Positions 33,098-61,785 of a DNA stretch of 64,000 nt are shown piece after piece. Source of the DNA: an uncultured Gemmatimonadales bacterium (GTDB lineage: Bacteria > Gemmatimonadota > Gemmatimonadetes > Longimicrobiales > RSA9); NCBI GenBank assembly GCA_963798085.1, contig CAWCRS010000003.1, positions 896,001-960,000 of the forward strand. The letters run 5' to 3'. The translations under genes were made by a program, and so were the position numbers. A model generated the notes under the pieces. It was not told where the DNA came from. It was given only the letters and a program-made list of their open reading frames with translations, and searched no databases. Position 1 is the stretch's first letter; every line of letters starts with the position of its first letter.

Positions 33098-33106
33098 TGT
33101 TGTTCT

Positions 33107-33178
33107 TCCCGCGTAGCTCAGTGGTAGAGCAGCCGGCTGTTAACCGGCGGGTCGTAGGTTCGAGTCCTACCGCGGGAG
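33107..33178 (+). tRNA. tRNA-Asn (GTT), CCA not encoded
   Basis: Cloverleaf: TCCCGCG/CGCGGGA acceptor stem, AGCTCAGTGGTAGAGC D arm, CCGG-CTGTTAA-CCGG anticodon arm, GTTCGAGTC T loop. Confidence 0.97.
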
Positions 33179-33370
33179 TTGAGGATGTTGGCTATCAGGC
33201 AAGCAGGCTCACGGAGAAAGACCGGTGGGCCTGTTTTGCATCCGGGCACTTCGGATCGGCCGATCGAGGCATGTGCCTGGCCGCGGTACAGCCCGACCAT
33301 TCGACGTGCATATGCGCCCCTGCGCTTGAGACCGGCTGGTGCCATATATGTTTGACACATGTCTGTTACT

Positions 33371-34929: not shown

Positions 34930-36960
34930 ATGAAGCTCAAGCACGCCATCATCGAAGTGATGGATCGGGACCTTCTCAAGCAGGTCTGTGACCGTCTCGA
35001 GATCGAGGCCGTCGACAGACGCAGCCGCGGGGATCTGCGGCCGCAGTCTCGCGAAACCGTAGGGCGAAAGCGGAAGAGCTGCTCGACTACCTCAACGAGA
35101 AAAATGTCAAGGAGGTTTGCGAGCTGGTCGGCGTTTCATCGCATGGGCGCCGCGCTGTTTTGGTCGAGCGCCTGCTGGGCAGTGACAGGACAAGAATGGA
35201 ACCACGAACAATGAAGGAGATGAAGCTCCGACTCCAGCCAGAAGTAGCACCGGCTCGCGGAAGGCGAAGCCCGACGCTCCAGAAAGGCAGCAAATGGATT
35301 GGCTCTCTGACGAGGAGGAACACTCCGCGCCAGCGCGATCAGCTCGAGCATCTCGAAGCGCGCGCAGGACATCGCGGAAGGTCAGGCAGGGGAATGCGGA
35401 GAGCGCCGCTGTCATAGGGTATGAGGCGCAGCTGTGGCAGATGGCCGACGCTCTGCGCGGCAGCATGGATGCTGCGGAGTACAAACACGTTGTTCGGGGT
35501 GATCTTCCTCAAGTACATCTCGACGCGTTCGAGGAGCACCACGCGAAGCTGGATGCAGAGCGCTCGTCGGGTGCCGATCCCGAGGACCCGGACGAGTACC
35601 GCGCGCTCTCCATCTTCCGGGTCCCGCCCGAAGCACGCTGGCCGTACCTGCGCTCCAACGCCCGACAGCCCACAATCGGCCAGCTCGTGGACAACGCGAT
35701 GGCTGGCATCGAGCGGGACAACCCTGCCCTCAAGGGAGTGCTTCCGAAAGACTACGCGCGCCCGGCACTGGACAAGACACGGCTCGGGCCAGCTCATCGA
35801 CATGATCAGCAATATCAAGGTAGGCGACGAGGCCAGCCGCGCGCGCGATGTGCTCGGCCGCGTGAACGAGTACTTCCTCTCGCAGTTTGCCAGCGCGGAG
35901 GGCAAGAAGGGCGGCGAATTCTACACACCACGTTGCGTTGTGAAGCTTCTGGTAAAGATGGTCGAACCCTACCGCGGCCGCGTGTACGATCCGTGCTGCG
36001 GCTCCTCCGGCATGTTCGTCCAGTCCGTGGAGTTCATCCGCGCTCACTCGACTGCGAATGGCAATGGCGGTGCTGCACCAGGCAAGAAACCAGACATCTC
36101 GATCTACGGCCAGGAGTCGAACTACACCACGTGGCGCCTCGCCAAGATGAACCTTGCGATCCGCGGGATCGACGGGCAGATCGCACACGGCGACACCTTC
36201 CGTTCCGACAAGCATCCCGATCTGAAGGCGGACTTCATCCTCGCCAATCCACCGTTCAACGTGTCCGACTGGGTGGCGAACAGTTGCGCGACGACAAGCG
36301 CTGGAAGTTCGGCGTACCGCCGACAGGGAACGCAAACTTCGCCTGGGTGCAGCACATCGTGTCCACCTGGCGCCTGCCGGCGTTGCCGGTTTCGTGCTCG
36401 CGAACGGCTCAATGTCGTCCAATCAGTCGGGCGAGGGTGAGATCCGCGCGAATCTGATCGAGGCCGGCCTGATCGACTGCATGGTGGCGCTGCCGCCGCA
36501 GCTGTTCTATTCGACACAGATCCCGGCGTGCCTCTGGTTCATCGCCCGTGAGCGATCGAATGGCATGTTTCGGGATCGCCGCAGTCACAGCTTATTCATC
36601 GATGCCCGCAAGCTCGGCGAGATGGTGGACCGAACGCATCGCGAGCTGACCGATGAAGATATCGCACGCATAGCAGATATCTATCACGCCTGGCGGGGGG
36701 AAACGGGAGCAGGCAGGTACGTTAATGTCCCGGGCTTCTGCCACAGTGCCGGAATAGACGAGGTCCGTAAGCACAGCCACGTGCTGACGCCTGGTCGATA
36801 CGTAGGGGCTGAACAGTCCGCAGAGGACGTTGAGCCGTTTCATGAGAAGATGGTGCGGCTATGCGCAAGCCTTCGAGAACAACAAGACGACGCTAGGAAG
36901 CTGGAGGATGCCATTGCCGCGAACCTGACGGCTTTGGGTTATGTCGAATGTATGAGTTGA
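34930..36960 (+). CDS. hsdM: Type I R-M methyltransferase HsdM with N-terminal extension (several frameshifts)
   Basis: [27 protein letters not shown] (motif I), ANPPFN (motif IV), LTPGRYVG. Confidence 0.9.
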
Positions 36961-38272
36961 CGGCACTCCGAGATGGAGGCTGGCTTTATCGCCCCGAGTT
37001 TCCGCCCGACTGGCAAAGGCGGCCATTGTATTCCTTGGCAAAGTGGGTGAACGGTTTAGCCTTCCGCGACATTCAATTTAGCACGGCTGGCATGCCGGTG
37101 ATCAAGATCGCCGAAATCAAGGGCGGGATTACGGATCAGACCAAGTTCACGCGACAGACGTTCGATGATTCAGTCCGTGTGCGTCCGGGCGATCTACTGT
37201 TCTCCTTGTCGGTCAGCCGGAGACATTGATAGATGCGTTCTGGTGGCGTGGTCCAGAAGGATGGCTGAACCAACACGTGTTTAGGGTGACATCGAGCAGC
37301 AATGTCGATACAGCGTTCTTATACTATCTCCTGCGATATCTAAGGCCACACTTCGTGGGAATCGCCCGCAACAAACAGACGACTGGCTTGGGGCATGTTA
37401 CGAAGCGAGATCTGGAAAACATTCAGGCAGCCTATCCTACGATGGCCGAGCAACGCGCTATTGCACACATCCTCGGCACGCTGGACGACAAGATTGAGTT
37501 GAACCGCCAGATGAGCGAAACGCTCGAGGCAATGGCGAGAGCGCTATTCAAGTCCTGACTCGTGGACTTCGATCCGGTGCGTGCCCAAGCCGAAGGCCGC
37601 GACACAGGTTTGCCCAAGCATATCGCCGATCTCTTCCCCAACCGGCTTGTCGATTCCGAGCTCGGCGAGATCCCGGAGGGTTGGGAGTTGAAGAGCCTCG
37701 ATGCGATCGCACAGTTTCTGAATGGATTGGCGCTTCAGAATTATCCCGTTTCGGACGGCCGCTCAATCCCTGTTGTCAAGATCGCCCAATTGCGCAGAAA
37801 TAGCACCCATGGCGCGGATCAGGCTAGCGCGGATCTCGAGCGGAGCTACGTCGTCGATGATGGCGACATCCTGTTCTCGTGGTCGGGCTCACTTGAGTGC
37901 GTGCTTTGGACCGGTGGTCGTGGGGCTCTGAACCAGCACATCTTCAAAGTTACGTCGTCATCTTATCCACAGTGGTTTCTTTTGTTCGCGGTTCACTGCA
38001 CATCTCAAAGAGTTCCGGCGAATCGCGGCAGGCAAAGCAACCACAATCGGCACATCCAGCGGCACCACCTGTCCGAAGCGTTAGTCGCCGTCCCACCGCT
38101 CACACTTCTCAGTGGGTTAGACCGAATGATTTCGCCATTCGTCGAGCGATCATGGAAGCTAAGAGTCGAATCCCGAACGCTTGCCGAAATACGCGACACA
38201 CTACTTCCTAAACTTGTTTCCGGCGAGCTGCGCGTGAAAGACGTGCATCGCTTCGCCGCAAAGGCAATGTGA
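36948..38272 (+). CDS. hsdS: Type I R-M specificity subunit HsdS (frameshifts and an in-frame TGA at 37556)
   Basis: [45 protein letters not shown]; two TRDs. Confidence 0.9.
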
Positions 38273-39237
38273 TGAGCAACGTTTGGTGCGTCCGAGCCGA
38301 GTGGGGAACCTACACCCGCCAATTCGTCGAGGGTGGGTACGTGGCGATCGGCTGGATAAACGGCGTGGATCTGACCGCGATCCGCACGCGAGAAGAGCTA
38401 TACCCGTTGTACAAGCAGGCGCACCCGGAAGACACGAGCAACATCGTGATCGGCCAGCAGGTCGGACAGATCGCTCGCTTCCTGCTCGAGATACGCGCGG
38501 GTGACTACGTGATCACCCCTGCGGCCGACACCGAGCACCTGCACCACGGGCAGGTTTCTCCCGATCCGTCGTACTTCTATGCCCCCGGCGACGCCGCATG
38601 TCCCTATCCGCACCGCCGGCGCGTTTATTGGTCAAAGAACACGCTGAAGCGTGGCGACTTCTCCGTTCCTTTCCAGAACACCATCCGCTCGTCGCTCACG
38701 GTCTTCGCCGTTTCGCAGCGCGACGAATTCCTCGCAGCGATCGGCCGGACCAATGTCACTCCACAACACCCGGCGCCGGAATATGACCCGTATCGTGTCG
38801 TCTCGAGCAGATCCTCGAACTTGATGACAAGGAGTTCGAGATCCTCGTCGCTCACCTGCTGACGGCGGTCGGTTTTGAAGGTTCCGAGGTGACCGGGAAG
38901 ACGGGGACGGGGGCGTCGACGCCATCGGCGAGCTGAACGTTTCGAATCTCGCCAAGGTCAAGGTCTACGTGCAAGCCAAGCGGTACAAGCTCTCCTCCAG
39001 AGTGACCGCGGGCACGGTACGACAGCTACGCCAGGCCATCCCGTTCGGCGGCCAGGGCGCATTCATCACGACCGCGGGCTTTCAGTCAGCCGCTGCCGAC
39101 ATTGCGCTGGAGGCCGGCTTCCCGCGCATCGGGTTGGTAAACGGCAGACAGCTCGTTGACCTGCTGGTTGAGCACTGGAGTGACATTCCGCCGGAGTTTC
39201 GCGAGCGGCTTGGGCTAAAGCCGGGGTTGGTGCGAGC

Positions 39238-39241
<4 letters not shown>
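38272..39241 (+). CDS. Mrr-like restriction endonuclease inserted between hsdS and hsdR (frameshifted)
   Basis: WCVRA..YVAIGW N-terminal domain; [32 protein letters not shown] (PD-(D/Q)xK). Confidence 0.82.
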
Positions 39242-42844
<3,603 letters not shown>

Positions 42845-43203: not shown

Positions 43204-44973
43204 ATGAACATTTTCTCATTTTTCTTCCCGCAAGGACAGCCCGCAGCGGTCGTCCTGAATGCAATCATAACGGTAGTTGGCGTCATGGCACTAGTGCGCC
43301 TGTACCTCAAGGGCGTGCGGCCGCTTCACGGTGAAGCGAAGGCGTTGGCGGACGTTGAAACGTGTTTGAAAGGGGACGTCTCGGCAGACGTCATCATCGA
43401 AGCCGCCCAATCGGTACCGCCGGAGACACTTGTCGCTGTTCGCATTGATGAACTTGCCCGGTTACGCGAACTGGGCGAGTGAGATTTCACCCGACCTCCC
43501 TGCTGGAACTGGCTCTCGCGCGTTTGGATAGACGCACCGCGTTTGCACGCTGGGCCGCGAGCGCCATTGTCCTCATGGGATTGGGCGGGACGCTGCTGGG
43601 CCTTTCGATCTCCGTGACCGCGGCTACCAAAATTGTTCGGGACAGCAACACGCTGCCCTCGTTCGAGAGCGTCCTTACCCCATTCGCCGGACTTCAAACG
43701 GCCTTCTCAACGACATTGAATGGCATCCTCTTGGGCTTTGGCCCTCGGAGCGGGCATAGCATTCATTCGAAGCAGCCAAACGCGCTTCCTCGTCGAACTT
43801 GAACGATTCACGATGATTCGACTGGTACCGCGTTTTGTAGCGCGCCAACAGTGGCTCTCGTGAATGCGGTGCGGACCTTAGGGGCGATCGAAAGTAAGCT
43901 GGAACGAGCCTTTGACGCGATCACCACGGAAGTAAAAGACCGCGGCCTATCCCTGGTTCTGAGCATAGAGACTGCTTTCGACAATCTCACGACTAACTTC
44001 GATGAGCGGGCACGCGAACTGCTCGAGGAGTATGTCTCCACGAATGAAGCCGTGACTAAACTGATCGGGAATTCCGACGAGACGGCTACGCTCGCCGCCA
44101 CCATTGAGTCTATGGCGATGGCGACGGAAGCGACGCAACGTGCGGCTACTGTCACGTTGGAGTTTGGAACTGCATTCTTGTCAAGGACCGAGGACCAGCT
44201 CAACCGCGAACTCGAAGCCATCCACCAGACACTATCCCGGGAAGCACTCCGAATCAGCACTGCGGCAGAAGATCAACGAGAGATATTCCGGGATTTGACG
44301 GTCAAGTTCGCCGGTTTCCTCCCCGAACTGAAACAAGGCGTAGATAGTGCATTGGCGGACGAACATATGCGCTTTCAGCAGATTCTCGAAGCGTGAGGAG
44401 GCAAGGTGGTCATCATCTGCAGCGGCGCTATCGGATTCGCTGGCCGACCTTGTCAGAGGTACGACCGAGCTCCACACTACCGTCGACGGTCTCCGTGAGA
44501 AGGTGCAGGAGCGCGCGACGACGCTAGAACGCGTGCATGCGGGACTGGCCAACATTGAGTCAGCTGTACGCGAGACGACCGAGATGATATCTCGCACAAC
44601 CGAAGCGCTGCCTCAGAGATTTGCCAAATTGATGGATAGCCGCATTTCGGTTTCGCAAGCTTGGCCAACCCGTGGGCCAGACAAGCCTGGCGCGGAGGCT
44701 ACACTCAAATCCAGCAACCGCCCGAACGGGGAGACCGCGCCATCCACGGTGCCCGCTACAGCGGCTAGTGCCGACCACAGAGTGCCAAGTGAGTCCCAAC
44801 ACTTGAAGGTAGCCGGAATGGAACCACAGGGAAATGGGGCCGCAGAAGAACCCAGCCCAGATCGCGGACCACGCCCGACACCTCCGACGCGAAGCGCAAG
44901 CGGTCCGCAGGCAGCGGGAAACCGACCGCAGACATTGGTGCGCAACCTGTTCGCCAGATTGCTGGGACGCTGA
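43204..44973 (+). CDS. ZorA-like MotA/ExbB/TolQ protein with long helical tail (frameshifts near 43480, 43740, 44390)
   Basis: Three TM segments including LMGLGGTLLGL and GLQTAFSTTLNGI channel motifs, followed by ~250 aa of heptad-rich helix. Confidence 0.72.
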
Positions 44974-44982
44974 GCCAGGGTC

Positions 44983-45619
44983 ATGGCGTCGATCGATCTT
45001 CGTGTCGGCAAAGAAGGCGACGAAGTCAGCTTCTGGAGTGTCGTTGCGGATCTGTCCCTCACTACGGTCCTCATGCTGGTCCTGCTAGTGCTTGTCCAGT
45101 TCCTGGCCACCTTCCGCGAAAGCAGGATCAACCAAGAGCTCCAGTTGCGGCAACACGAGATGAAAGTTGCATTAAACGGTATCAGCACCGGTTCCATAGG
45201 GATCGACAGCATTGCACCAGACCGGCAACGTTTGACCTTCGCGAACCAGTTGCTGTTCGAGAGCTGTGATGTCACTCTGCATGGCCGAGGAAGGGAATTG
45301 CTACGGAAAGTGGGCTCGGTGATTCGCGATCGGCAAAACTACTTTGAGTCCATCCACGTTGAAGGACACGCGGACGCCAGATCCACTGGCGGTGCGGCTT
45401 GTCCGTACGCCTCGAATTGGGAGCTATCGTCCCAGCGTGCGACGGCGGTGGTGCGTATACTCGCCGATAGCGCCGCACTGGATCCGCGGATGCTGTCAGC
45501 AACCGGCCGCGCAGAGTTTCATCCGATTTGATGTTGTCGATCTTAACCGCAATCGACGCATTGAGATCATCCTGCTGTACGACCGTGCAGCAATAAGTGC
45601 CAATAGCGTTTCTCATTGA
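44983..45619 (+). CDS. ZorB-like MotB/OmpA protein (frameshift near 45525)
   Basis: FWSVVADL TM with conserved Asp; VEGHAD, NWELSSQRA, NRRIEI peptidoglycan-binding motifs. Confidence 0.82.
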
Positions 45620-45690
45620 AGAGAAGTCACGTACGGGGCAGTATCGCGGTGCAGAGAGCCGTGTCCAAATACCATACGCGGAGCTGAGGA

Positions 45691-48600
45691 GTGAACGACG
45701 CAAGATCACCCGATCGCAGCCGAGAAGACCTGGTCGACCGGGTCAGCAGAGTCTTCGGTTTCTTGAAGGCGGTTCAGGAAGAGCGCAATCCGCCTCCTAC
45801 CCAAATCCGGCAGCACCCCTGGGTCCTCCGCTTCAGTGACATTCCGCAACACGACTGCACGCATATTCGGCCCATATCATCATATCTCAATACTGAGGAG
45901 CGTGATGTACCTGATGCCGGAAGGCGCGACGCGATTCTGACGGTCCGGAGGCCACAGCTAACCGATCCACCTACTCCTCCGGCTGAAATACGCAAATGGC
46001 TGAAGGGTACCTGGTCCGATCCAAAACTTCTGCCGGAGCACCTTTCTGTCCCACCCTCAGGAATGGACGACGATCTGGAGACATTTGACCATGATTCAGG
46101 CCGCGCCCAGGCGTGGACAGCGTGGATCAATGAGTGGCGGCAGTGGTCGGATTCGGAGCGTCCCACGCGGGTCGTCCTTGACCTGTATCAACGGCTGTTT
46201 GCTTTGCACGGGCGGCTGGAGCGCGAGAGTGAAGCGTATGAACTCATGGTCGGTGACGGCATACTACAGTGGCACGCTCCGGGCGGGCAACCCGTCCAGC
46301 ACCCGATCCTGCTGCAAGCTGTAGATCTAATCTTCGAGTCGGGGCGCGCAACCTTCCGCATTCTGGAAGGCGATCGCCCAACTGAATTCTATTCCTCAGC
46401 ATTTGCCCGAAATCCCAACGTAGATGGTGCACGCATTCGAGCCTACAGCAAACGCGCAGAAGAACATGGATTACACCCATTGGCGCCAGGCGAAACGACA
46501 GGCTTTCTGCGCGACTTGGCCGCATCGCTGAGCGCCGGCGGCGAGTACATGGACGGGCCTGTCGAGCGCAAAGCCACATTCGGACCCTGTTATCGGCCGC
46601 GATCCGGTTCTGTTCCTGCGGCGTCGAGGAGAAGGACTTCAGCGCGTCATAGAAAAGATCCTGATTGATCTGCAGGAAGGCGGTCAGATTCCGTCGTCGA
46701 TCCTTCGCATTACTGGCATTGACCCCGAACCGGGTCTCTCGCGTTTGCCTGCTCGCGGCAATTCATGGGACGAACCACAAGACGTCCTGCTGACCAAGGA
46801 AGCCAATCAGGAACAGATCAAGATTGCTGAACGGCTGGAGCAGTCTGGTGCTGTGATCGTGCAAGGCCCACCCGGAACCGGCAAAAGCCACACAATTGCC
46901 AATTTGATCGGACACCTTCTCGCGCGTGGTTCGCGGGTTCTCGATCACCAGCCATACCACCAAAGCACTGAAAGTCCTGCGTGAGAAGGTTGCGGAAAAA
47001 CTCCAGCCTCTCTGCGTCAGCGTTCTCGAAACGGATCAGGCCGGGCGCGAACAACTTGAGCAAGCGGTAACTGCGATCGTGGCTGCCTTGGCGGATCGAG
47101 ATCCTGATCGCCTGAGAGCCGATATCCGCAGTCTTCGTGTAGAACGCGATCAACTTCTTGTACATCTCCGAGATGTGGAACGTTTGCTCCTTGAAGCTCG
47201 CCGCGCAGACTACTTACCCGTGTCCATTGGCGGCAAGACGTGCACACCCGGGGAAGCGGCGCGCGAAGTGGCCTCGGGCGCCCACGCTCATGGTTGGATC
47301 CCGGGCCCCGTAGAAGCCGGGGCGCCGCTGCCACTCAGCGTCACGGCCATCAACGACCTGTATGCCACGAATGTTGCCGTAACTATCGACGCTGAGCAAG
47401 AACTCATCGAATCAATCCCTGCCTCGGACGAATTGCTGCAGCCAGATGAGTTTATGCAAGTTGTGGCGGGGTTGGTCAGCGACCAGTCTGCTGTCTTCGA
47501 TGCGTATTGGAGCTCACCTGCATCGCCGGATGACAGTATTGACTATGAAACGCTCGGAGAAGCAGCTATACGGGCAATGGCGCCTCTCACCAATGACTCA
47601 GGTTGGGAGATCGCGATAGTTGCGGCCGGCAGAAGGAAGGAAGGGGCCGCGGCTCCATGGATCGAATTGATCCGATCTATCGAGACCACGACCGCAACGG
47701 CGGCTGGAATCCAGGAGACTCTGATTCGGTCTGACCCTCATTTGGCTGATGACATTTCGCTCACCGACTCACTCCGGCTGGCAACCGAAATCGCAGCGCA
47801 CGTGCGCCAGAAAGGTCATGTTGGGCGCCTCCAGAAGCTGTGGCAAGCTGATTGGCGTCATTTCATTGCCAAAGCGCGGAGCAGAAACACCGAACCAGAC
47901 ACCCTTGAGGATTTTGAGGCGCTCGCTGCATACACGAAGTTGTTGATCCAGCGAAAGAGCCTGGTTGATCGCTGGGATCGGCTGATGGCGCCATTAGGCG
48001 CACCGACTTGCGCTGAGTTGGGGCCGGAACCAGAGATAACTTGCGAGCAATATGTGCCGGGCATTCAACAAGCTCTCGACTGGACGGCAAGGATGTGGGA
48101 GCCAGCTTGTGCAGCGCTCGAGGCAGCCAACTTCGATTGGGAGCAATTTATCGGCGATCAATCTGCAGACCTGAGACAGTACGGCGACCTGCTGCGGATC
48201 CGCGACAGCGTCCTTGGACCGCTGCAGCAGTGCTTGGCCGTCCGGCAGGCGGCCGTCCGCCACGAGAAGTCAATGATTGTGCTGGAGGCATTGGAAAATG
48301 CACTTGCGGGTTTCGTTGGTGCAACGACCACCAATCTGAAGAAGGCGGTAAAGTTACGGGACCCCGATGCCTACGCCATTGCATTCAACCGATTTGAGGA
48401 CCTTCGGGCGCGTGATGCCGTCCTGCGTTCGCGTTTAGCGTGGCTGAAAGCAGTCGATACCAGCGCACCAAACTGGGCCCAACACATTAGAAGCCGCGAC
48501 GGGAAGCACGGAGCTCCCCTTCCTCCTGGCGATCCCAATCGAGCATGGCGCTGGCAACAGCTGAGCCAAGAGTTAGATCGCCGTGCATTGATTGATACCG

Positions 48601-50191
48601 TTCGGTTAACGCGCGAGCGCGAAGAACTCCGCGGCCGTATTCGCCACGTAACGGTCGATCTGATCGAGGCACAGTCATGGCTTCATCAGATCGAGCGGAC
48701 TGCCAGCGACGAGCGAAGGGCATTGGTCGGGTGGGCCGATACAATGCGGCGGATCGGCCGCGGTAACGCCGCCGGGCACCAATCCTGCGAGCTGAGGCTC
48801 GCAAATTGATGGATAAAGCGCGTTCAGCCGTGCCAGTATGGATAATGCCCTTGTCGCGTGTTTTCGACAGCTTCGATCCCGGGAGGGAGAGATTTGACGT
48901 AGTGATTATCGACGAGGCGAGTCAGGCAGACATTACTGCACTTGTTGCGCTGTATATGGGGCGCCAAGTTGCTGTTGTTGGCGACCACCAGCAAGTCAGT
49001 CCTCTCGATGTCGGGCGGGATCTGGGGAGTCTCGACAGCCTGATTGCCCAACACCTCGCAGACATTCCCAGCAGCCATCTCTACGACGGAAAGACCTCCA
49101 TTTACGATCTGGCGCGCCAAAGCTTTGGTAGCACGATTCCGTTAATGGAGCATTTTCGGTGCGTACCGGAAATAATCGAGTTCAGCAACGGCTTATCGTA
49201 CAACTGGACCATCAAACCACTGCGGGACGGAGCAAACGCGGTTGTCGGACCTCCAACGGTCGAGTTCTACGTATCAGCTGTGCAGGCGCAGCAAAGGCGC
49301 AACCGGAAGGAGGCACTTTGGATTGCGGCTCTGCTACAAGCTTGCATTGAGCAACCGGCATATTCCGATAGCACGTTCGGAGTCATCTCCCTGGTTGGTG
49401 AGGAGCAGGCTATCGAGATCGAGACGCTGCTGCACAGAGAGTTGCCGCCATCGGAGATCCACAAGCGCCAGATAGTCTGCGGCAACGCAGCGCGATTTCA
49501 AGGGAATGAGCGTAATGTGATCTTCCTCTCAATGGTCGATGCACCGTCAGGTGACGGCCCGCTTGCGCTTCGTTCACAAGACCTTTTCAAGCAGCGCTTC
49601 AATGTGGCAGCCAGCCGTGCCCGCGACCAGTTGTGGCTTGTGCATTCACTCGACCCCGGAACGGATTTGCAGCCGGCGGACTTGCGCAGGCGGCTTATCG
49701 AGCATGTCCGAGACCCGGGACGACATCTCCGCGAGCTCTCCCGAGAGCAGGCCCGTACAGAATCCGAGTTCGAGCGCGAGGTGCTTCGTGCATTGGTTGC
49801 AAAGAACTACCGAGTTCGGAGTCAGATTCATGTGGGGTACTATCGTATTGACATGATCGTCGAAAATTCCGCAGGAAAGAAGGTCGCAATTGAGTGCGAT
49901 GGCGAACGGTTCATCCGATCGAGAAGATTCCTGCCGACATGGCCAGGCAAGAAAAATCCTGGAGCGCCTGGGTTCGACCTTCATCAGGATCCCGTGGAGC
50001 AGGAATGGTACCGGGAGCCGGATAGGACGCTGGATGAAGTGATGAATGAACTGAGCCGACTTGGCGTTGATCCGCTCGGACCTGCAGATAGCCTGATAAC
50101 CGTGGCAGCAATGGAGTTGAAAGAAGCAGTCATTCGGCGAGCCTTCGAAATCGCTAACGAACGGAGGGTGAAGTGGAGCCCATTTCCGTGA
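45691..50191 (+). CDS. Large SF1 (Upf1/DNA2-like) helicase with C-terminal Vsr/DUF559-like nuclease (several frameshifts)
   Basis: QGPPGTGKSHTIAN, FDVVIIDEASQ, VGDHQQ, HFRC, FQGNER, RFNVAASRAR; ESEFE..YRIDMIV..AIECDG. Confidence 0.85.
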
Positions 50192-51183: not shown

Positions 51184-53894
51184 TCAGCGGCGCATCGACT
51201 GTAGCGGGTCCGCGCGCGCAGCCCGCAGCGCGGGCACCAACGTAGCGCTCAGCGCCACGACCAGCACGGTAGCTGCGGTGACAGCGAGCACGAAAGGATC
51301 GCCGGGAGAAGTGTGGAAGAGGAGAGGTTGCACGAGGTGGCCCGTGAGGCGGACGAGCACGAGGCCGATGAGCACACCGGTTGCGCAGTGATGAACGGCG
51401 CCCGACCGAGCACCGATCCGAGGATACGCCCCTGCCGCGCACCGAGCGCCACGCGAATGCTCAGCTCGTGCAACCTCTCGCCCACCACGCAGGACATCAC
51501 ACCGAAAAGACCGACGGCCGAGAGCAGGATCGCGAGCGCGGCGAAAAGGCCGAAGAGCACGGCGCCCAGTCGCGCGGGGCGAGTGTCGCCGGCGAGCAGC
51601 GTGGACATGGGTACCACGTCGACCAGGGGCAGCTCCGGAGCGACGCTCTGCAGGCGTTCGTGGATGACGCGCACACTCGCGAACGCATCGCCGGCAGGCC
51701 GCACGAGAAGCGCGCGCAGACCGGAAATGCCACGACCCGCCTGCTCGGGCACATAGAGCTGCGGTCCGGGAGCATCATCACCGAGACGGGGGGACCGCGT
51801 AGATTCCGCCACGCCGACCACCGTCGAGCAATGCAGCCCCTTCTCGCCGAGGTGTGTCATCCCGATATCAATGCACTGGCCAATGGGATCGGCGTCGGGC
51901 CACAGCACGCGGGCTAACACGTCGTTTACGATCGCGGTATTGCGGCCGTCCTGCGAGGCGAACGCTCTGCCTCGCAACAGTCGCGTACCAGCCGTCTCGA
52001 AGTACTCGCTGGATACCGCCATCATGCGTACTTCGGCGTTGTGCAGCTCGGGAATCGTGTCGCGGCCGGGCAATGCCACGGTAGTGCTCAGGTAGGAGCG
52101 GTAGGGCATTCCCTCGACGAGCGCGGCGTGCTCGATGCCGGGCATCCGCGACAGCTCCTCGAGCATTGTGCGCAGCACGTCATTCGCCTGCGCGTCCGAG
52201 AACCCTGCGGCGCCGAGATCGGTCGAGACCAGGAGCAGGCGATCGGCATCCATGCCGGTGCGCAGCCGCGACCCATTCACGAAACTGCGCACGAAAATGC
52301 CGGTGCCGGTGAGGAGCACGACGGCGGCGGTCGCCTGCAGAACCAGCAGCACCTGGCGCGTGCGCGTAGGCGAGGCCGCTCGCATGCCGGAGCGCAGCTC
52401 GTGCGCGAGATCGGCAGGCGCGGCGCGCAGCGCGGGGAGCAGCGATGTGCTGACGCCCACGAGCAGCGTGACGAGCGCGGTGAAGAGAAAGACGTGCGCG
52501 TCGACCGGTGATTGCGGCCATGCGTAGTCGTCCAGCAGCAGGTGCTGCAGCAGTCGGCCGCCCGTGGCCACGAGCAGCAGGGCCGCGGCACCGCCCAGTA
52601 CCGCGAGGAGCAGCGACTCGCTCAGCAGCTGCGTGAACAGGCGCCCGCGTGTGATGCCCAGTGCCATGCGCAGTGTGATCTCGGGCCGGCGTCGCAGTAT
52701 GCGGGTGAGCAGCAGATTGGCCACGTTGACACAGGCCATGAGCAGCACCAGCAGGGACACGACACCCAGGACAAACGCCACGCGACTGGCGGCAGGAATG
52801 TTCGCGGAGCGCGCTGGAATGATGGGGTCGAGCTGCAGGCGATCCCGCTCCGCGCTCTGGCCACCGGCCGCCTCGCCCGCGCGGTAGATCGCGGTTGCCT
52901 GCGCCGCGGCCGCCGCGGGGGCAACGCCCGCGCGCAACCGCCCGCGCACGCGCAGCAGCTGCATCCGCCGCATCGTGCGCCAGGTATCCAGCGGGAAGCG
53001 CGGCGCGTCGGCGGCGTTCAGCGGGACGAAGACATCCGCCGGCTCGAGGTCGACGCCGGTGAAACCATTCTGCGGCACACCGACAATCGTGAACCAGCCG
53101 GTGCCCAGCTGAATGCGACGGCCGAGCACGCCGGGATCCTCGCCGTACTCATTGCGCCAGAGCCGGTGGCTGAGCACGACGACATTCCCGGCCGCCGTGG
53201 GGACGTCGTCGCCCGGGCCGAGCAGGCGGCCGAGCGCGGCACGAACGCCCAGCATGGGGAAGTAGCCGCCGCTGACTAACAGGCCTTTTACGGAGCGGGC
53301 CTGCGCTCCCCGTCCCAGCGCGATCGCTTGCGGATACGTCTGCGCCGCCAGTGCCGCGAAGTTCGTGGCGCTGCGCTCGAGATCCTGAAACGACGGGTAG
53401 GACATCGAGGTGCGCGTGTATTCCGACGGGCCATCGTGCGCGCGCGTGTCCAGGCCGTAGACATCCTCCGGCGCCACAATGCCGGCGGGCGCGCGCAGCA
53501 GCAGCCGGTCGACCAGCCCGAACATCGTGGCATGCGCGCCAATGCCCAGGGCGAACGTAAGGATTGCCGCCAGGCTGTAGCCGGGCGAGCGGCGCAGCTG
53601 ACGCCACGCGTAGCGACCATCCTGCCAGCGGCGCTCCAGCCATTCGCGCGCGCCCAACACGCGTTCCTTGCGCCTCGCCGCTTCATGCAGCTGCCTTCTC
53701 GTGCTTTCCGCGCCGAAGCGACGCTCCGCCTCCGCGCGCGCGTCCGGCTCCGACCACCCTGCCGCGATCAGCTCTTCCACGCGCAAGTCGACGTGCGACG
53801 CGATCTCCTCATCCAGCTCCGCGCTCCGGCCTGCGTCGCGACGCGGCACGCGCCGGCGCCCGCGGGATCCAGGATCGGCAGGCGAGGATGTCAT
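51184..53894 (-). CDS. ADOP-family duplicated ABC permease (MacB_PCD/FtsX; frameshift near 51390)
   Basis: ELDEEIASH, RRSPGY..LGIGA, ACVNVANLLL, IRVALGA, PALRAARADP. Confidence 0.88.
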
Positions 53895-54220
53895 GCATCC
53901 GCCAGCACCGTGTGCAGCATCGTCGCATACTCCAGCAGCCGCGACGTCTCCTTGCGCAGCTCCTTCCGTCCCGCGCTCGTGAGCTGGTAGTAGCGCGCCC
54001 GCCGGCCGTTCGCCGTCACGCCCCACTCGCCGCGAATCGCTCGCCGCTGCTCGAGCCGGATCAGTGCGTGGTACAGGGCGCCATCCTCCACATCCAGCGC
54101 GCCACCCGAGCGCTGCTCCAGCCAGCGCGTGATCTCGTAGCCGTGCAGCGGTCCCTCCGCCAGCGTGCGCAGCACCAGTACATCCAGCGTTCCCCGCACC
54201 AGCGCGATCGTCTTCTTCAT
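53891..54220 (-). CDS. PadR family transcriptional regulator
   Basis: GTLDVLVL, LHGYEI, GALYHALIRLE, RRARYYQLT; overlaps the permease start. Confidence 0.92.
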   Translation of the reverse strand: MKKTIALVRGTLDVLVLRTLAEGPLHGYEITRWLEQRSGGALDVEDGALYHALIRLEQRRAIRGEWGVTANGRRARYYQLTSAGRKELRKETSRLLEYATMLHTVLADA

Positions 54221-54484
54221 GATCGGTGCTCTCCTCCCAGTATCTTGGGGCAAGCATGTCAGGTCAGGAGCGAGGCGGCAATACCGTCGGGACGAAGTGA
54301 GGTGCGTGCGCCGCGAGCGGTGGTAACGCGGGTTGCGCGGCGGTGGGCGGGACACGACTGACGGTGTTACGATTCCTCGGTACTTGTGCACAACTACCGA
54401 GGCTTTGTGACATCGGACACGCCGCACTAATGTGTTCCGCGTTCATCGATTCGAAGTTCTCGGGCGGAGGCCGGCAGCCACAAG

Positions 54485-54645
54485 GTGGCGGATGGCGTCT
54501 ACGACCACACGTCGATCGTGCGCAGGATCGAGGAGTGGCGCTGGGAGCTGCAGCCGCTAACGCCACGCGATGCGGCGACGAACAACCTGGCCGGCGCGCT
54601 CGACTTCCGGCAGCGGCCTCGCCTGGTCGCGCCGCCACAACGCAC
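54485..54645 (+). pseudogene. C-terminal fragment of a phosphoesterase/phospholipase C
   Basis: YDHTSIVRRIEEWRWELQPLTPRDA..NNL.GALDF. Confidence 0.6.
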
Positions 54646-54659
54646 CGGCCCGCGGACGG

Positions 54660-54971
54660 AGACGGACTTACGTCACGAGCGCCTCGTGCGGCTGCACGTG
54701 CAGCGCGCGGCGTAGCTGCACGGCGGCCGCCACAATGCTGACCGCGCCCAGCGCCAGTACGGCGAGCACGGCAAACAGCGGGCTGGCTGCGCGCGCGCCG
54801 TAGAGGAAGGACGCCATGAGCCGGGCGGTCACCCATGACGCGGCCAGTCCGGCGATGACGCCGATGGCGACGATGCGCAGTGCGTGACCGTACACGGCCC
54901 GGGCCACGTCGCGGTGCCTCGCGCCGAGAGCCACGCGGACCGCGATCTCTCTCGAGCGTGTCGCCACGGTG
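54660..54971 (-). repeat. Near-identical copy of the 3' end of the 58032-60473 permease
   Basis: 54660-54971 matches 58023-58335 with only a few substitutions. Confidence 0.9.
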
Positions 54972-55160
54972 CCCTCTGGGACCGCCTCGCGGAGCTGGCC
55001 GAGGAGTACATCCGCAAGGGCGACCGCCTCTACGTCGAGGGACGGATGGAGTACGACTCGTTCGAGCGAAACGGCGTCACTGTCCCCACAGCAGAGGTCG
55101 TCGTGCGCGAGCTGGTCCTGCTCGGTGCTCCGTCGAACAGCGCCTCGATCGCGGACCGTG
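54972..55160 (+). pseudogene. ssb: Fragment of single-stranded DNA-binding protein (second half of the OB fold)
   Basis: LWDRLAELAEEYIRKGDRLYVEGRMEY...AEVVVRELVLLG. Confidence 0.75.
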
Positions 55161-55500
55161 AGGCAGGCGATCAGCAGGTTGTTGATCGCCCACAGCCAGG
55201 CACCGTCTGGCCACTTCGGTGCCATCGCCACCTCGCCGAACAGGAATGCCACGCCGAGAACGACCGCCGCGGTGACGAGACCGACGAGCAATCCGCGCGC
55301 CCAGCTCCACGCGCCCCGGTGGAGACGCAGCGCAGGCCAAACGAGCAGCAGCCAGAATCCGGCGAGGGGCTTGTCGAGGTTGAGGTACGTCGTGAATGGG
55401 ATCGCGTCCAATGTGTACCGCACTGGTCCGATGACGCGCAGGTTGTCGAATCCCGCCAGTTGCGCGACATGAACAGGGCGAGGGAGTTGCTCGTCGAGCA
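55160..55500 (-). pseudogene. Internal fragment of a CPBP-family intramembrane protease
   Basis: GFDN, PFTTYLNLDKPLAGFWLL, PKWP...NNLLIACL; truncated before the EE motif. Confidence 0.6.
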
Positions 55501-55562
55501 CAACGCGCGGAAGGCGAAGCTAAAGAGGGAGAAACATGGGGAGCCACATCGGAGAAAGGAGA

Positions 55563-55880
55563 GATGGTCCCCCGACACCTACCCGCGACTTCAAGCGAAC
55601 GGTAGCGACACGCGTGGAGCGCGATCCGGCTTTCGCGCGCGCGATGCTCAATGAAGCGGCGACACTGTTCCTGAACGGCGAGCCGGAAACAGTGCGCATG
55701 TTGCTACGCGATCTGGTGAACGCCACGGTCGGCTTCGAGCAGCTCGCCAGGCTGACGGAGAAGCCGGCCAAGAGTCTGCATCGGATGCTGTCGGCCAACG
55801 GCAACCCCAGCATGGACAACCTCGCAACGATCGTCGACGATCTCCGGGATGAACGTCGAGATCGAGCTGCATGCGGTGCA
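55563..55880 (+). CDS. Addiction-module antidote-like HTH regulator (ends uncertain)
   Basis: TRDFKRTV..RDPAFARAML, LRDLVNATVGF, KSLHRMLSANGNPSMDNL. Confidence 0.7.
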
Positions 55881-55973
55881 GGCCCCGTGATTCGAAGCGC
55901 GAGCATCTGTCCACCGATATGGGCGAAGCGAAACGGCCGCCCGTTCGACAAGGTGGCGCAGACGTTCCACCAG

Positions 55974-57562
55974 TCAGAGCGAATCCACCGCACGAACGAC
56001 ATACCCGAGCACGAAGTTCCCGAATGGCGTCGCGGTCCTGCCTGACGGTTGCCGCCTCCAGCGTCTCGAAATACGGAATGCGGTCGTCACTTCGGATGGT
56101 GACCCAGGGGAAGCCCGCAGTCATGAGGCAGAGGTTCATCAGGAATCGTGCGATCCGACCGTTGCCGTCCGGAAACGGGTGAACCGCCACAAAGTCCAGA
56201 TGAACGAGTGGCGCCCGGACGATTGCTGGCTCACGAAGTTCGTTCGCCAACTCGATATGCTGCTGCATGAGTTGTGGCACCTTTTCCGGCAATGGAGGGA
56301 CGTAGCGCGCACCGCGCAGGTAGGCCGGGTTGCTGCGCCAGCCACGCAATGCGTCGGCATCGATGATGCCGGCCTCCACAGACGGCGAGAAAAGGTCCTG
56401 ATAGAGCGTCTGGATCAGCGGCTCCGAGATGTCGAGGCTTCCGTCTGATTCGTTGATGATCGCGATGCAGCGATCGAACGCTGCCGAATAGCCTTTCACC
56501 GCCATTCGTGCCTTCACATCCTCCGGATCGTGCCCGCCGACCTGCCGGCCAGCGATCACGGCCGAGACTTCTTCGGGCGTGATTCGATATCCCTCGATGG
56601 TCGTGGAGTGGTAGGCGTCATAGGTCTTCGCCGCCTCCGCTTGCCGCACCAGCCGGGATCTGTCGAAACGGGGCTGTTCAATGTGAGAGGCAAGCTCTTC
56701 CCGGATCTGGTCGAAGAAGCCGCGGAAGGTCACCTCGTGTCGCGCCAACCACGGAGAGATGGATCGCGCCTGCGACACCAGCCTTGGAATCACGACCTCC
56801 GAGCCGACACCCGTGCGTGCCCGGCTGATGTGTTCCCCGTGTTCGATGGCAAGCAGGCCGTCGAGCTGTTCCGCGAGACGCCCGTTGCCGGCATTGCCCG
56901 CCATTTCCGCCAGGCGCCGGATGACCAGCGGGCGTGGCATACGGGACCACTCCTGTTGGAGCGCGGGCCTGGAAACGATCAGAGAACGAAGCCAGATCGC
57001 GACCCGTTCCAGATGATCTCGCAGTGTGGTCAGCGGAAGCGCGAGCAGCGTCCGCTCCGGTCGATCCACGGAGAGTTCCGCCCCATCCAGGACGATCGTC
57101 TTCGCCTCCTCCGGGACGACGTCGCCCGGCATCGCCTGCAGCTCGAGCCCGTCACACAACTCGAAGGTATAGTTGCTTCGACTGCTCCCGTGACGGATAC
57201 GAAGGCGGGCCGGCGGCGTCGCATCCTCAATGTACAGCTGCACCGCCGATTCTCGTTCGAGAACTGCGGGCTCGTAGTTCTTGAGAATCGCCTGCACGAT
57301 CCGCCAGTAGTTGCGGAGGCACAGGTCCCGGTCCGGCTCACGCTCGGGCGTCTTGAGGATCCAGGCTTGTCCTCCTGCCGCTTCCACCGCATAGCCACCG
57401 CGGAGCAGGAGGCCGCGCCCCCTTCCCCGCGGTTGTTCGGACCGGGCCATGACGAGGCGGTCGTTCTCGACCTGATCCCTCCACCACGCGATGGCCACGT
57501 CCCTGCTTCTGAGCGTCGGTCCGGTCAGTCCTCGCCTCCGGCAGGTACTTTTGCTCTAACAA
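55974..57562 (-). CDS. Fic-domain protein with long N-terminal extension (frameshifts near both ends)
   Basis: Canonical HPFPDGNGRIAR motif and HSTTIEG inhibitory motif. Confidence 0.85.
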
Positions 57563-57724
57563 TCTTGGTACGATTACTATATCATGTCTGGTACGAAGGC
57601 TCTAATCAAGCAAGTACGATCGCGATACCCTGAAGCTGGGTCAAGTGGCAGGAGGGCGGCGCCCGACCACAAGCCAGTGACGCGAAACGGCCGCCTGCAG
57701 GCGGTCGATTCCTCGCGCGAGAGG

Positions 57725-57893
57725 CTGCTATGGTTTCTGCTATGGTTTGAGTCCGGTTTCTGCACGGATCAGCCACCTTCGATGTCGGCCTGATCCCGGC
57801 AACCCGTTGAAATCACGACCTTTTCTCGGGATCCGCCCTGACTCCCACCGAAATGGGGTTCAGGGGGTCGCCGGTTCAAATCCGCCGTCCCGA
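57725..57893 (+). mobile_element. att-site remnant: tandem arm-type repeats plus the 3' half of tRNA-Pro(GGG)
   Basis: CTGCTATGGTTT x2 (57725-57748); ATGGGGTTCAGGGGGTCGCCGGTTCAAATCCGCCGTCCCGA runs from anticodon loop to acceptor stem, with no 5' half. Confidence 0.7.
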
Positions 57894-58031
57894 TTTTCTG
57901 AAGTTCTTGCGGTACACAGGCAGAGGTTCATCAGGAATCGTGCGATCGATTTCGCCTGTTATGAACTCACCGGCCCGCGGACGGACAGACGTTACGGGGC
58001 GGGTCTCGGGTGCCATGCAGTAGAGACGGAC

Positions 58032-60473
58032 TTACGTCACGAGCGCTTCGTGCGGCTGCACGCGCAGCGCGCGGCGTAGCGGCACGGCGGCCGCCACAAT
58101 GCTGACCGCGCCCAGCGCCAGTACGGCGAGCACGGCAAACAGCGGGCTGGCTGCGCGCGCGCCGTAGAGGAAGGATGCCATGAGCCGGGCGGTCACCCAT
58201 GACGCGGCCAGTCCGGCGACGACGCCGATGGCGACGATGCGCAGTGCGTGACCGTACACGGCCCGGGCCACGTCGCTGTGCCTCGCGCCGAGAGCCACGC
58301 GCACCGCGATCTCTCTCGAGCGTGTCGCCACGGTGAACGCGAGCACGCCATAGAGTCCGAGCGCGCTCAACAGCATCGCGAGAATGCCGGCATAGGAAAC
58401 GGCGCTGCCCGCGAGGCGCACCGAGCGGTAGGCGTCGGCGATGGCCTGCTGGACGGGCTCGACGTCGCTGACGGGGACGGCGGGGTCGACGGCGCGGGCG
58501 GTGGTCTGCAGCAACATCCGCGTCGCGGCCGGGTCGCCGGTCACGCGCACCGCGAACCTCGCCTCAATGGCGGTGGGGTCCTGCCAGAAGGCGGTGTAGA
58601 CGACGGGGGCGCCGGCCTCGTCAGGACGGCGCACGCGGTGGTCGCGGACGACGCCGATCACGGTGGCTTCGGCGCCGTCGACGACGAGCGGCTGGCCAAT
58701 CGGCGAGGCGTCGGGCCACTGGCGACGGGCTAACGCTTCGTTGACCACGACCACGCGCGGCGAGCCGACGATGTCACGGTCGTCAATGGCGCGGCCGGCG
58801 ACCAGCGGGATGCCGAGGGTCTCGAAGAAACGCGGGCCCACCTGTTTCCAGGCGGCTTCGGGCTGCGGGGTGCCGGCGGGCGGCGTGTGACCCGGAAGCC
58901 ACGTCGTCGCATGAAATCCGTAGAACCAGACCTCGCCGGTGCCGGCGAGGGTGACCGATTGCACGCCGGGCACCGACTCGAGGCGGGCCACGATCTCGCG
59001 CAGCACGGGCCTGGCGCGGGCGGTGTCGTAACCGACGAGGCCGGGCCGCACGCGCGTGCCCACGACGTGCGCGGCATTGGCGAGTGCGTCACGCAGGACA
59101 TTGCGCATGCTCTGCACGAGCATGCCGGCGCTCACGAGGCCGAGGCAGGCGAGGGCGATCTGCAGGGCGAGGAGGATATCGCGCGCAGGGGTCCGGGCGC
59201 GGCCGCCGGCACGGGCATCGCCGCGGAGCACGCCACCGGGATCGGCGCGCGCGACCTGGACGGCCGGGCCGACGCCGAAGGCGAGGCCGGCCATGAGCGC
59301 GAGCAGCGCGGCACTCGCCATGACCATGGGGCTGAGGCGCAGCCCATACGGGAAGCGCGCTCCCAGGTACATTGACTCGAGTGCGGCCTGCAGCCAGATC
59401 GCGACAAGCAGACCCGCGCCCGCGCCCAGCAGTGCAAGCGCGACGCCTTCGATCGCCAGCTGGCGCACGATGCGTGACGGGGAGGCGCCGATGGCGCGGC
59501 GGATGGCGATCTCGCGGTAGCGCGCGACGCCGCGCACGAGGAGCATGCCGGCAAGGTTGGCGCAGGCGACGAGGAGGAGGAGCACGCCGGCCGCCAGCAG
59601 CAGGGCTACGACCTTGCGGTGGTCGTCGCGGTGGGTTCCCGCGGCAACGCCTCGCAAGGGCCGGAGCTCCAGGCGGAAGGCGCCGTCGAAGGCGCCGAAG
59701 GTGACGCGTGCGTCGCGCTGGCTGGCGAGGCGCTGGCCGAGCACCGTCATTTCGGCCTGTGCCTCCTCGAGCGTGCGGCCGGGTGCGAGCCCGCCGAGGA
59801 GCGCGAGGATGCGGCAGTCGCTGGCGAAGGCATTGCCACAGAAGCGGTAGCCGATGGCGAGCGTCGAGAGGGGAATCCAGACATCGTTCGGCTCGCCGAT
59901 CTGCGCGCCGCGGAACGCGGGCGGCGCGACCCCCACCACGGTGAAGGCCGCGCCGTTGAGCATGAGCGTCCGGCCGATGACGCCGGGGTCCCCGCTGAAC
60001 CACTCGTGCCACGCACGGAACGAGAGCACCGCGACGGGCGCCGGCGTGCGCGCGCGGTCCTCCTCGTCGTTGAAGAAGCGGCCGGCGGCGGGCCTGATGC
60101 GGAGCAGCCGGAAGTAGCTGGCCGAGACGACGGCGCCGGCGACAATGCGTGCGTCACCGGCCTGCGTCAGTGTGAGCGGCGATGTCGAATAGTGCGCGGC
60201 CACCTGCGTCAGCGTCCGGCTCTGCTGCACCAGGCTCGCGTACTCGTCCCAGGCGAACGCGCTCGGCTCGTAGATGCGGTCGCCGAAGCTCGCGTAAATG
60301 CCGACGACGCCGCGGCTGTCGGCGCCGGGAATCGGGCGCCGGAAGAGCGCATCGGCGAGAGAGAGGATCGCGGTGTCGGCACCGATGGCGAGCGCCAGCG
60401 TCACGACGGCAACGCCAGTGAACACGGGGCTCCTGCGCATGATGCGCAGGCAGTAGACGAGGTCGTGCTTCAT
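58032..60473 (-). CDS. ADOP-family duplicated ABC permease
   Basis: RRSPVFT..LALAIGA, ACANLAGMLL, REIAIRRAIGA, REIAVRVALGA. Confidence 0.9.
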   Translation of the reverse strand: MKHDLVYCLRIMRRSPVFTGVAVVTLALAIGADTAILSLADALFRRPIPGADSRGVVGIYASFGDRIYEPSAFAWDEYASLVQQSRTLTQVAAHYSTSPLTLTQAGDARIVAGAVVSASYFRLLRIRPAAGRFFNDEEDRARTPAPVAVLSFRAWHEWFSGDPGVIGRTLMLNGAAFTVVGVAPPAFRGAQIGEPNDVWIPLSTLAIGYRFCGNAFASDCRILALLGGLAPGRTLEEAQAEMTVLGQRLASQRDARVTFGAFDGAFRLELRPLRGVAAGTHRDDHRKVVALLLAAGVLLLLVACANLAGMLLVRGVARYREIAIRRAIGASPSRIVRQLAIEGVALALLGAGAGLLVAIWLQAALESMYLGARFPYGLRLSPMVMASAALLALMAGLAFGVGPAVQVARADPGGVLRGDARAGGRARTPARDILLALQIALACLGLVSAGMLVQSMRNVLRDALANAAHVVGTRVRPGLVGYDTARARPVLREIVARLESVPGVQSVTLAGTGEVWFYGFHATTWLPGHTPPAGTPQPEAAWKQVGPRFFETLGIPLVAGRAIDDRDIVGSPRVVVVNEALARRQWPDASPIGQPLVVDGAEATVIGVVRDHRVRRPDEAGAPVVYTAFWQDPTAIEARFAVRVTGDPAATRMLLQTTARAVDPAVPVSDVEPVQQAIADAYRSVRLAGSAVSYAGILAMLLSALGLYGVLAFTVATRSREIAVRVALGARHSDVARAVYGHALRIVAIGVVAGLAASWVTARLMASFLYGARAASPLFAVLAVLALGAVSIVAAAVPLRRALRVQPHEALVT

Positions 60474-60689
60474 GCGGGCATCCTCTCCGTGGCGGTCGCC
60501 CGCGTGTGCAGGGCAACCGCCGCGCCAGCGCGCGCCCGGGGCCAACCGCTTGCTGCGGTTGCGATTGGCGGCGCCTGCCGGAACTCCACTGCGGGCGTGT
60601 CGTGCCGATTCCGGGAATCCGCGATCGATAACGGAACGACGCGCGCGGCTGCCATCCGCAAGTTCGACGACATCCCCTGCTGCGCCCGG

Positions 60690-61749: not shown

Positions 61750-61762
61750 AGCGATTTCTGCA

Positions 61763-61785
61763 TTTGGTTTAGTTTAGTCTAGTCC
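61763..61785. promoter_or_regulatory. Probable TA operator (5-bp tandem repeats)
   Basis: TTTGG-TTTAG-TTTAG-TCTAG-TCC directly upstream of the antitoxin. Confidence 0.5.

Follow-up and report, generated by a model that had tools for sequence, protein, structure and literature searches.

The stretch of DNA analysed here, referred to as the window, comprises 64,000 nucleotides (nt) from an uncultured Gemmatimonadales bacterium (assembly GCA_963798085.1, contig CAWCRS010000003.1, positions 896,001 to 960,000). Three co-oriented genes occupy positions 43204-50191 of its + strand, with intergenic gaps of 9 and 71 nt, and encode a ZorA-like protein, a ZorB-like protein and a UPF1-like superfamily 1 (SF1) helicase-nuclease (Table 1). 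The guanine-cytosine (GC) content of this unit is 57.6%, compared to 67.0% (1-33000) and 67.8% (51249-64000) in the flanks and 61.6% in the neighbouring restriction-modification (R-M) block. A sequence-only reading of the window had proposed a candidate new Zorya variant at this place, consisting of three tightly spaced genes of lower GC than their surroundings, a description that these figures confirm.

Table 1. Features of the three-gene unit and its immediate context (positions in the window)
Feature	Position	Strand	Remarks
ZorA-like gene, about 589 amino acids (aa) if read through	43204..44973	+	frameshifts near 43482, 43732, 43839, 44395
C-terminal motif LVRNLFARLLGR of the ZorA-like protein	44935..44973	+	resembles the membrane-targeting sequence of MinD; conserved within the main clade of ZorA
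ZorB-like gene, about 212 aa	44983..45619	+	frameshift near 45530
Codon of Asp23, conserved transmembrane aspartate (in FWSVVADL)	45049..45051	+	invariant in 16/16
UPF1-like SF1 helicase-nuclease, about 1,500 aa	45691..50191	+	frameshifts near 46580, 46944, 48770, 49912, 49953, 50003
Walker A, GPPGTGKS	46865..46888	+	helicase motif
Walker B, DEASQ	48911..48925	+	helicase motif
REase_MTES_1575 (Vsr/DUF559-like) nuclease domain	49769..50053	+	ESEFE, RIDM, IECDG, RQ and ERLG kept across three frameshifts
Type I R-M operon (hsdM, hsdS, PDC-S02/Mrr-like gene, hsdR)	35294..42844	+	context; many frame pieces
tRNA-Asn	33106..33179	+	near left edge of the lower-GC island

A putative ZorAB-type motor pair

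The ZorA-like protein consists of three transmembrane (TM) helices (hydrophobic segments at residues 13-31, 117-135 and 169-187), a membrane-proximal helical domain, a helical tail of ~260 aa, a Pro-rich linker and an amphipathic C-terminal motif. Its four pieces match the family profile with E values of 4e-28 to 7e-9. Searches with the middle piece yielded 39 representatives (E up to 0.001), mostly of 500-660 aa, 32 of which were aligned; in TM2 and TM3 these have G, T and F positions that never vary. The structure model of one relative (P0059; predicted local distance difference test (pLDDT) score of 77) shows helical structure throughout, comprising a tail of ~260 residues, then a linker that is disordered, and a short helix at the end. 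When this model was submitted to Foldseek, the two best matches were to E. coli ZorA (8qyk, 8qyd), with TolQ and ExbB behind them; the E values of the ZorA matches, 1.7e-3 and 1.9e-3, exceed 0.001 and fall short of the tool's significance mark. Hydrophobic segments, model and family profile bear out the earlier description of a 3-TM MotA/ExbB-type protein with a long helical tail. Among the PADLOC ZorA models, the window piece reaches only E 0.009; ZorA3 matches the relatives from genomes G433 (E 4e-13) and G626 (E 1e-9), and the protein from genome G1191 finds no match at 1e-4.

The C-terminal end of the ZorA-like protein resembles the membrane-targeting sequence of E. coli MinD, KGFLKRLFGG (PMC5471200), and one ZorA relative terminates in RGFLSRLFGGS. 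A simple amphipathic pattern, which misses some similar ends, is present at the C-terminus of 21 of the 39 ZorA sequences, including those of the window, G433 and G1191; it is absent from G626 and from the four distant ZorAB-like pairs described below. Judged from its sequence, this tail-tip motif may bind the membrane.

The ZorB-like protein contains one TM helix, a short helix and an OmpA-type peptidoglycan-binding domain with two invariant Cys residues (OmpA domain, E 7e-11; PADLOC ZorB1/ZorB3, E 3e-14). Fifteen close relatives of 198-227 aa and 43-54% identity were found among 47 matches. The two Cys, the GHxD and NWELS motifs and Asp23 are invariant in all 16 aligned sequences, so that the TM aspartate and the MotB/OmpA character noted from the sequence alone hold up; Asp23 is presumably the counterpart of EcZorB Asp26. 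The ZorB profile aligns to the solved Zorya ZorB chains 8vvn, 8vvi and 8qyd over positions 5-210 of 216. Its alignments to flagellar MotB, PomB and MotS, by contrast, start no earlier than position 39, in keeping with a ZorB built without a linker, as PMC11946911 describes it. In all four loci that were read, zorA lies directly before zorB on one strand, and six further A-B pairs were assigned to common contigs by matching contig sizes within one source. Taken together, sequence comparison and structure modelling support a motor pair of the ZorAB type rather than of the flagellar or TonB type.

The helicase-nuclease

The third gene encodes a protein with an N-terminal domain of ~340 aa, a RecA1 domain carrying a helical insertion of ~600 aa, a RecA2 domain and an MTES_1575/DUF559 nuclease. 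Pfam identifies AAA_11, AAA_12 and MTES_1575 (E 1.8e-13), and additionally DUF559 in intact relatives, in agreement with the Upf1/DNA2-like SF1 helicase of ~1,500 aa with a C-terminal Vsr/DUF559-like nuclease that had been recognised beforehand. The pieces are colinear with intact relatives of 1,511 and 1,547 aa. The best library matches, to PDC-S37, ProA, Hhe and Mokosh models, cover motor and nuclease only. For the N-terminal ~340 residues, modelled at pLDDT 85, neither Foldseek nor Atlas returned a match and the best VIA Z was 6.1 on a helix pair, a lack of matches that does not establish a new fold. A second, more distant SF1 helicase-nuclease lies in pieces elsewhere in the window genome (G000:C2:13210-18689), on a contig without a ZorA profile match.

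Recurrence of the helicase beside ZorAB

To find related loci, the host phylum was searched in samples that overlap (401, 401, 73, 401, 401, 15, 3, 5 and 5 genomes), and a further collection was scanned, whereby matches to the OmpA part only were set aside before ZorAB loci were counted. Hereby, all 15 matched genomes out of 401 for family f4 matched from profile position 40 on, that is in the OmpA part, and in the phylum sample the same held for 11 of 13 matches. The phylum samples contain six other ZorAB-like loci (in genomes G1191, G433, G626, G508, G410 and G080). The collection scan, for which a ZorB alignment with generic MotB patterns was used, returned at least 160 loci; among the matches listed there was one clear ZorAB-like pair (L001) and no helicase match. 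Three viral scans yielded no relative, and 30 plasmid records contained no full-length ZorB match.

The ZorAB loci fall into two sets. The ZorA profile, of which the G1191 protein is itself a part, scores G1191, G433 and G626 at E 1e-99 or better and G508, G410, G080 and L001 at E 1e-33 or worse. In the ZorB tree the window sequence groups with G1191, G433 and G626 (support 0.85) and the four distant pairs remain outside; the ZorA tree agrees with weaker support. This split follows similarity and not the neighbouring genes.

All three other close loci encode a helicase with AAA_11, AAA_12 and nuclease domains on the same strand within 2.1 kb, so that the helicase is indeed conserved beside these ZorAB homologues, a check that had been named in advance. 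The order of the genes varies. In G1191 (contig C65) it is hmaB-hmaC-helicase-zorA-zorB, the helicase stop overlaps the ZorA start and the three open reading frames (ORFs) are intact. G433 shows the order zorA-zorB-(SF2 helicase)-helicase, followed by WYL and hsdM genes; its superfamily 2 (SF2) protein matches PbeA, ResIII and DEAD, not ZorD, and is missing from the other three loci. In G626 the order is zorA-zorB-helicase, the ZorB gene is split by an insertion sequence (IS) and its end overlaps the helicase start. The GC content of these three operons is 59-61%. They belong to three families of the host class and lie in different islands (type I R-M, Hma, McrBC), and all four loci, the window included, adjoin restriction-type defence genes. 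Since only 7 of 251 genomes from the order contain the helicase subfamily, the window genome G000 and G433 counted in, the presence of the helicase in three of three further loci, in permuted order and in differing islands, is unlikely to reflect chance adjacency, even if related loci are not independent of one another. A fifth linked locus is probable, as the ZorA protein P0079 and the helicase P0119, which groups with the G433 helicase, come from the same source and are each encoded on a contig of 15,239 nt (chance matches expected, 0.09).

Further observations concern the surroundings of these loci. In G1191 (L213:8267-14593), HmaB and HmaC (PADLOC E 0) lie directly upstream, HmaC overlapping the helicase start, and on the downstream side an rpoB C-terminal fragment converges on zorB. 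The IS that splits the ZorB-like gene of G626 (L180:10350-11840) carries an rve transposase, and McrBC is found divergently upstream of zorA, 1.3 kb away on the opposite strand.

The four distant ZorAB-like pairs adjoin kinase, PP2C-like, Tubulin_2, Hsp70, Clp-type and TPR genes. In L001:8489-19682, from a Holophagales metagenome-assembled genome, the pair (PADLOC ZorA3, E 7e-13; no helicase) precedes genes for a Clp-type AAA+ protein, a Ser/Thr kinase and a long protein of TPR type, as well as an apparent CHAT-domain gene. The G508 pair (L181:6-9858) comes after Tubulin_2 and Hsp70-like genes, and that of G080 (L174:1751-10453), whose A and B genes are separated by an unrelated one, after kinase/PP2C-like genes. 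The G410 pair (L182:2301-12287) lies directly upstream of a 1,444-aa kinase-like ORF, which we take to resemble BREX PglW. Possibly, the pairs of G508, G410 and G080 represent a separate family of motor-linked conflict systems.

Genomic setting

The three-gene unit follows the type I R-M operon at a distance of 360 nt, in line with the defence-island setting anticipated from the sequence. The tRNA-Asn gene may be the integration site of the island. No flagellar or TonB genes occur near the locus, again as anticipated; the ZorAB-like pair is located in the low-GC island, and a second ZorA-like copy was not found in the genome. Promoter/terminator and repeat scans returned nothing beyond chance at the locus, and the window contains no McrB/McrC homologues.

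Within the R-M operon, the PDC-S02/Mrr-like gene (38269-39241, E 3e-77) sits between hsdS and hsdR, and the hsdR reading frame (39654-40874) holds a Peptidase_S24-like segment within the helicase region (residues 146-278 of ORF 39765-40874). Left of the tRNA, two convergent TIR_2 genes (27137-32197) encode a 665-aa TIR protein and a 987-aa TIR-NB-ARC-TPR protein. To the right, a 300-nt direct repeat (98%; 54659-54958 and 58023-58322) lies inside a permease gene cluster; the 3.1 kb between its copies carry a Fic-domain gene, an ssb-like fragment and a probable antitoxin.

Comparison with known systems

Three Zorya subtypes are named in PMC11890865 and PMC11946911. No match to ZorC, ZorD, ZorE, ZorF or ZorG was obtained among 12 + 77 ORFs in and around the locus, ORFs below 70-130 aa lying outside the scan, nor among 14 proteins scanned from G433, G626 and G1191. 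The statement that none of the known Zorya partners is recognisable thus stands, and since the partner test fails for each of types I, II and III, we do not file the unit under any of them. In the literature no paper was found that pairs ZorAB with an SF1 helicase, candidate tables in supplements being places that could hold such a case; the preprint 10.64898/2026.05.13.724313 deals with Druantia.

With type I Zorya (E. coli, 8QYD/8QYK, PMC11946911; Shewanella, 8VVN, PMC11890865) the unit shares, as far as those accounts describe it, the 3-TM A subunit with a long helical tail, the TM aspartate joined to an OmpA-type domain without the flagellar plug-linker, the conserved pair of Cys residues, a soluble partner that is an ATP-dependent helicase-nuclease, and the defence-island setting. 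In contrast to type I, it lacks ZorC and contains an SF1 protein (AAA_11/AAA_12) with fused MTES_1575 instead of the SF2 helicase ZorD; its A subunit is shorter (500-660 aa) and has an amphipathic end, its ZorAB proteins score far under the NCBIfam cut-offs, and its gene order varies and differs from zorABCD. Types II and III (PMC8565338, PMC11890865) have the ZorAB core in common with it, and type II, as described there, also comprises three genes with one nuclease partner, but neither an HNH-type ZorE nor ZorF, ZorG or ZorC finds a match here.

The helicase itself resembles Hhe (NF042953), ProA (NF058533) and PDC-S37, the best library match (E 4e-30 to 1e-69), in combining a large SF1 helicase with a C-terminal Vsr-like nuclease. 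Unlike in those single-gene models without a membrane motor, there is no DUF4011 match, and the match to Hhe and ProA covers motor and nuclease only, with 144-216 bits compared to cut-offs of 1,500 and 2,000. By its described layout, CnuH of CoCoNuT type III-B (PMC10542128) is also similar, being UPF1-like with a helical insertion after Walker A and a fused Vsr-like nuclease, and serving as module of a larger system; the McrB/McrC partner of CoCoNuT III-B, however, is not present in the window, and the main text of that preprint makes no mention of Zorya, MotB or OmpA. Flagellar MotAB and ExbBD/TolQR share the MotA/ExbB-like TM fold, the TM aspartate and the OmpA-type domain. They differ from the unit by its long A tail, the missing plug-linker (in B subunits a feature of flagellar stators as described in 10.1101/2024.07.22.604496), the absence of flagellar/TonB genes and its single copy in a low-GC island.

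Proposed mechanism and alternative explanations

Motor assembly and Asp-dependent ion flux are established for E. coli type I Zorya (PMC11946911). The parts of the unit, their intact motifs, their recurrence and the island setting are read directly from the DNA, and we consider it probable (roughly 60%) that they form an unnamed Zorya variant in which a ZorAB-type motor is coupled to a pre-existing stand-alone helicase-nuclease. In this variant, an inner-membrane ion motor of ZorA/ZorB type, probably an A5B2 complex, would sense the envelope disturbance at phage injection, and ZorA's cytoplasmic tail would localise or switch on the SF1 helicase-Vsr-like nuclease, presumably by physical coupling. 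By analogy to E. coli type I Zorya, the motor could recruit or de-repress the helicase-nuclease at the injection site, where a single chain, replacing ZorCD or ZorE, would unwind and cut the incoming nucleic acid, DNA rather than RNA being the presumed target. The helicase would come from a large family that is normally motor-free, the motor being an added sensor. For E. coli type I Zorya, recruitment of ZorC and ZorD to the infection site is described to need peptidoglycan binding, the TM aspartate and the tail (PMC11946911; review PMC13434031). ZorAB pairs without soluble partners give no protection according to PMC8565338 and PMC11946911, and no other gene is common to the four loci, which leaves the helicase as the only candidate effector.

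Several observations weigh against this interpretation. Apart from the Foldseek values given above, the NCBIfam cut-offs for ZorA and ZorB are far off (ZorB1, 25.4 bits vs 400), and the ZorA pieces of the window have no match to NCBIfam ZorA. Only four loci were read, in one of which (G626) the helicase stays whole beside the IS-split ZorB gene, and no helicase of this kind is seen beside the four distant ZorAB-like pairs (the G508 contig ends inside ZorB, its downstream region being unseen). The helicase family comprises at least 5,220 clusters, compared to about 16 for ZorB and 39 ZorA representatives, and 9 of 12 loci of the helicase subfamily have no ZorA/ZorB profile match in the DNA fetched; these nine are six loci in five genomes and three plasmid-collection records, and one of the nine lies on a 5.3-kb contig. 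The nearest relative of the G1191 helicase (G485, 51%), as seen in one unpublished genome, is a stand-alone gene. The G626 helicase is 24-26% identical to the others, without a detectable shared N-terminal domain; it represents a different subfamily, which implies separate capture or exchange. A quick IQ-TREE tree of 18 rows places the helicases of the window, G1191 and G433 together with P0119 in one supported set of 8, so that one gain with losses is possible for these four; the other members are the stand-alone G485 gene and three rows without context information. This tree requires three label changes, and a FastTree analysis with 50 rows is similar. Because the family mostly occurs without a motor, the helicase may protect alone.

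This leads to the main rival explanation, in which an autonomous single-gene helicase-nuclease of Hhe/ProA type has ZorAB as a recurrent neighbour that acts in parallel (e.g. by membrane depolarisation) or in synergy, without direct recruitment. We regard it as rather unlikely. The huge stand-alone family, the nine motor-free loci, the label changes and the intact G626 helicase all speak for it, and so do the overlap with the HmaC end in G1191 and the position behind vWA-, PP2C- and kinase-like genes in G224, which suggest that the helicase attaches to several systems. All four loci of this ZorAB group nevertheless carry the helicase, with gene overlaps and permuted order, and the published ZorAB pairs need soluble partners to protect (PMC8565338, PMC11946911). 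Independently of this question, the stand-alone subfamily helicase of G224 (L207:5003-12465) comes behind a TerY-P-like triad (vWA-like, PP2C and kinase-like genes) of the sort reported next to CoCoNuT helicases. A coupled unit with another role, directed at the entry of plasmid or conjugative DNA, at contact-dependent attack or at an RNA target, appears distinctly less likely still. UPF1-like helicases act on RNA and ssDNA, CnuH-Vsr fusions of CoCoNuT are predicted in PMC10542128 to target RNA, and the distant ZorAB-like pairs adjoin kinase, PP2C-like, Tubulin_2, Hsp70, Clp-type and CHAT-like genes; restriction-type defence genes beside all four loci and a patchy distribution typical of defence genes (1/15 and 1/3 genomes within two genera) argue against such a role. 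A divergent type I, II or III Zorya with overlooked partners, to which the weak matches to ZorA1/2/3 and ZorB1/2/3 models and the SF2 helicase after ZorB in G433 would point, is highly improbable and already largely refuted by the failed partner search in the window and in the 14 proteins, by the non-ZorD matches of the G433 protein and its absence elsewhere, and by the lack of space for a further gene in the window operon.

Whatever holds for the system elsewhere, the window copy itself might belong to a decayed, non-functional island. Frameshift-aware alignment to the family profiles places 4 shifts in the ZorA-like gene, 1 in the ZorB-like gene and 6 in the helicase gene, 11 in total within 7 kb, and this rate of 1.6 per kb, which also counts against a functional unit, is ~7x the 0.23 per kb found for 60 conserved genes in this assembly, a background biased toward intact genes. 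Furthermore, 7 of 11 breaks lie near a homopolymer run of at least 3, compared to a background of 41%, so that enrichment is not clear, and the long genes left of the tRNA-Asn are unbroken. Against decay, the best aligned path of about 2,200 codons contains no in-frame stop and every catalytic motif is kept; the R-M genes next door are broken in the same manner, 12 of the 60 conserved genes are also frameshifted, and the pattern of breaks is what errors in a long-read consensus would be expected to leave where coverage is poor. Given the intact motifs and the absence of nonsense codons, consensus error is a likely cause of the 11 frameshifts, decay being an unlikely one, and the copy is presumably intact in the cell.

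Going beyond the coupled variant, one may speculate, with little confidence, that ZorAB is a portable sensor which was bolted at least twice onto a stand-alone helicase-nuclease (two unrelated subfamilies, permuted order) and in more distant lineages onto signalling modules of kinase, tubulin-like and Clp type. Hereby, a MinD-type anchor at the tail tip would let the tail arc to the membrane, from where rotation would release or twist it to license the nuclease.

Implications

The unit bears on how the Zorya motor signals to its effector. Its candidate effector is a single polypeptide with motor-free close relatives (51%), so linked and stand-alone copies can be swapped, an exchange that asks whether ZorAB confines or switches on a nuclease otherwise working alone. 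The genome G1191 supplies an intact three-gene copy, and the conserved tail-tip motif of ZorA is a specific handle on tail function. If the proposed coupling is true, the unit would represent a fourth effector class for Zorya and would suggest a likely role for a helicase family of thousands of unnamed clusters.

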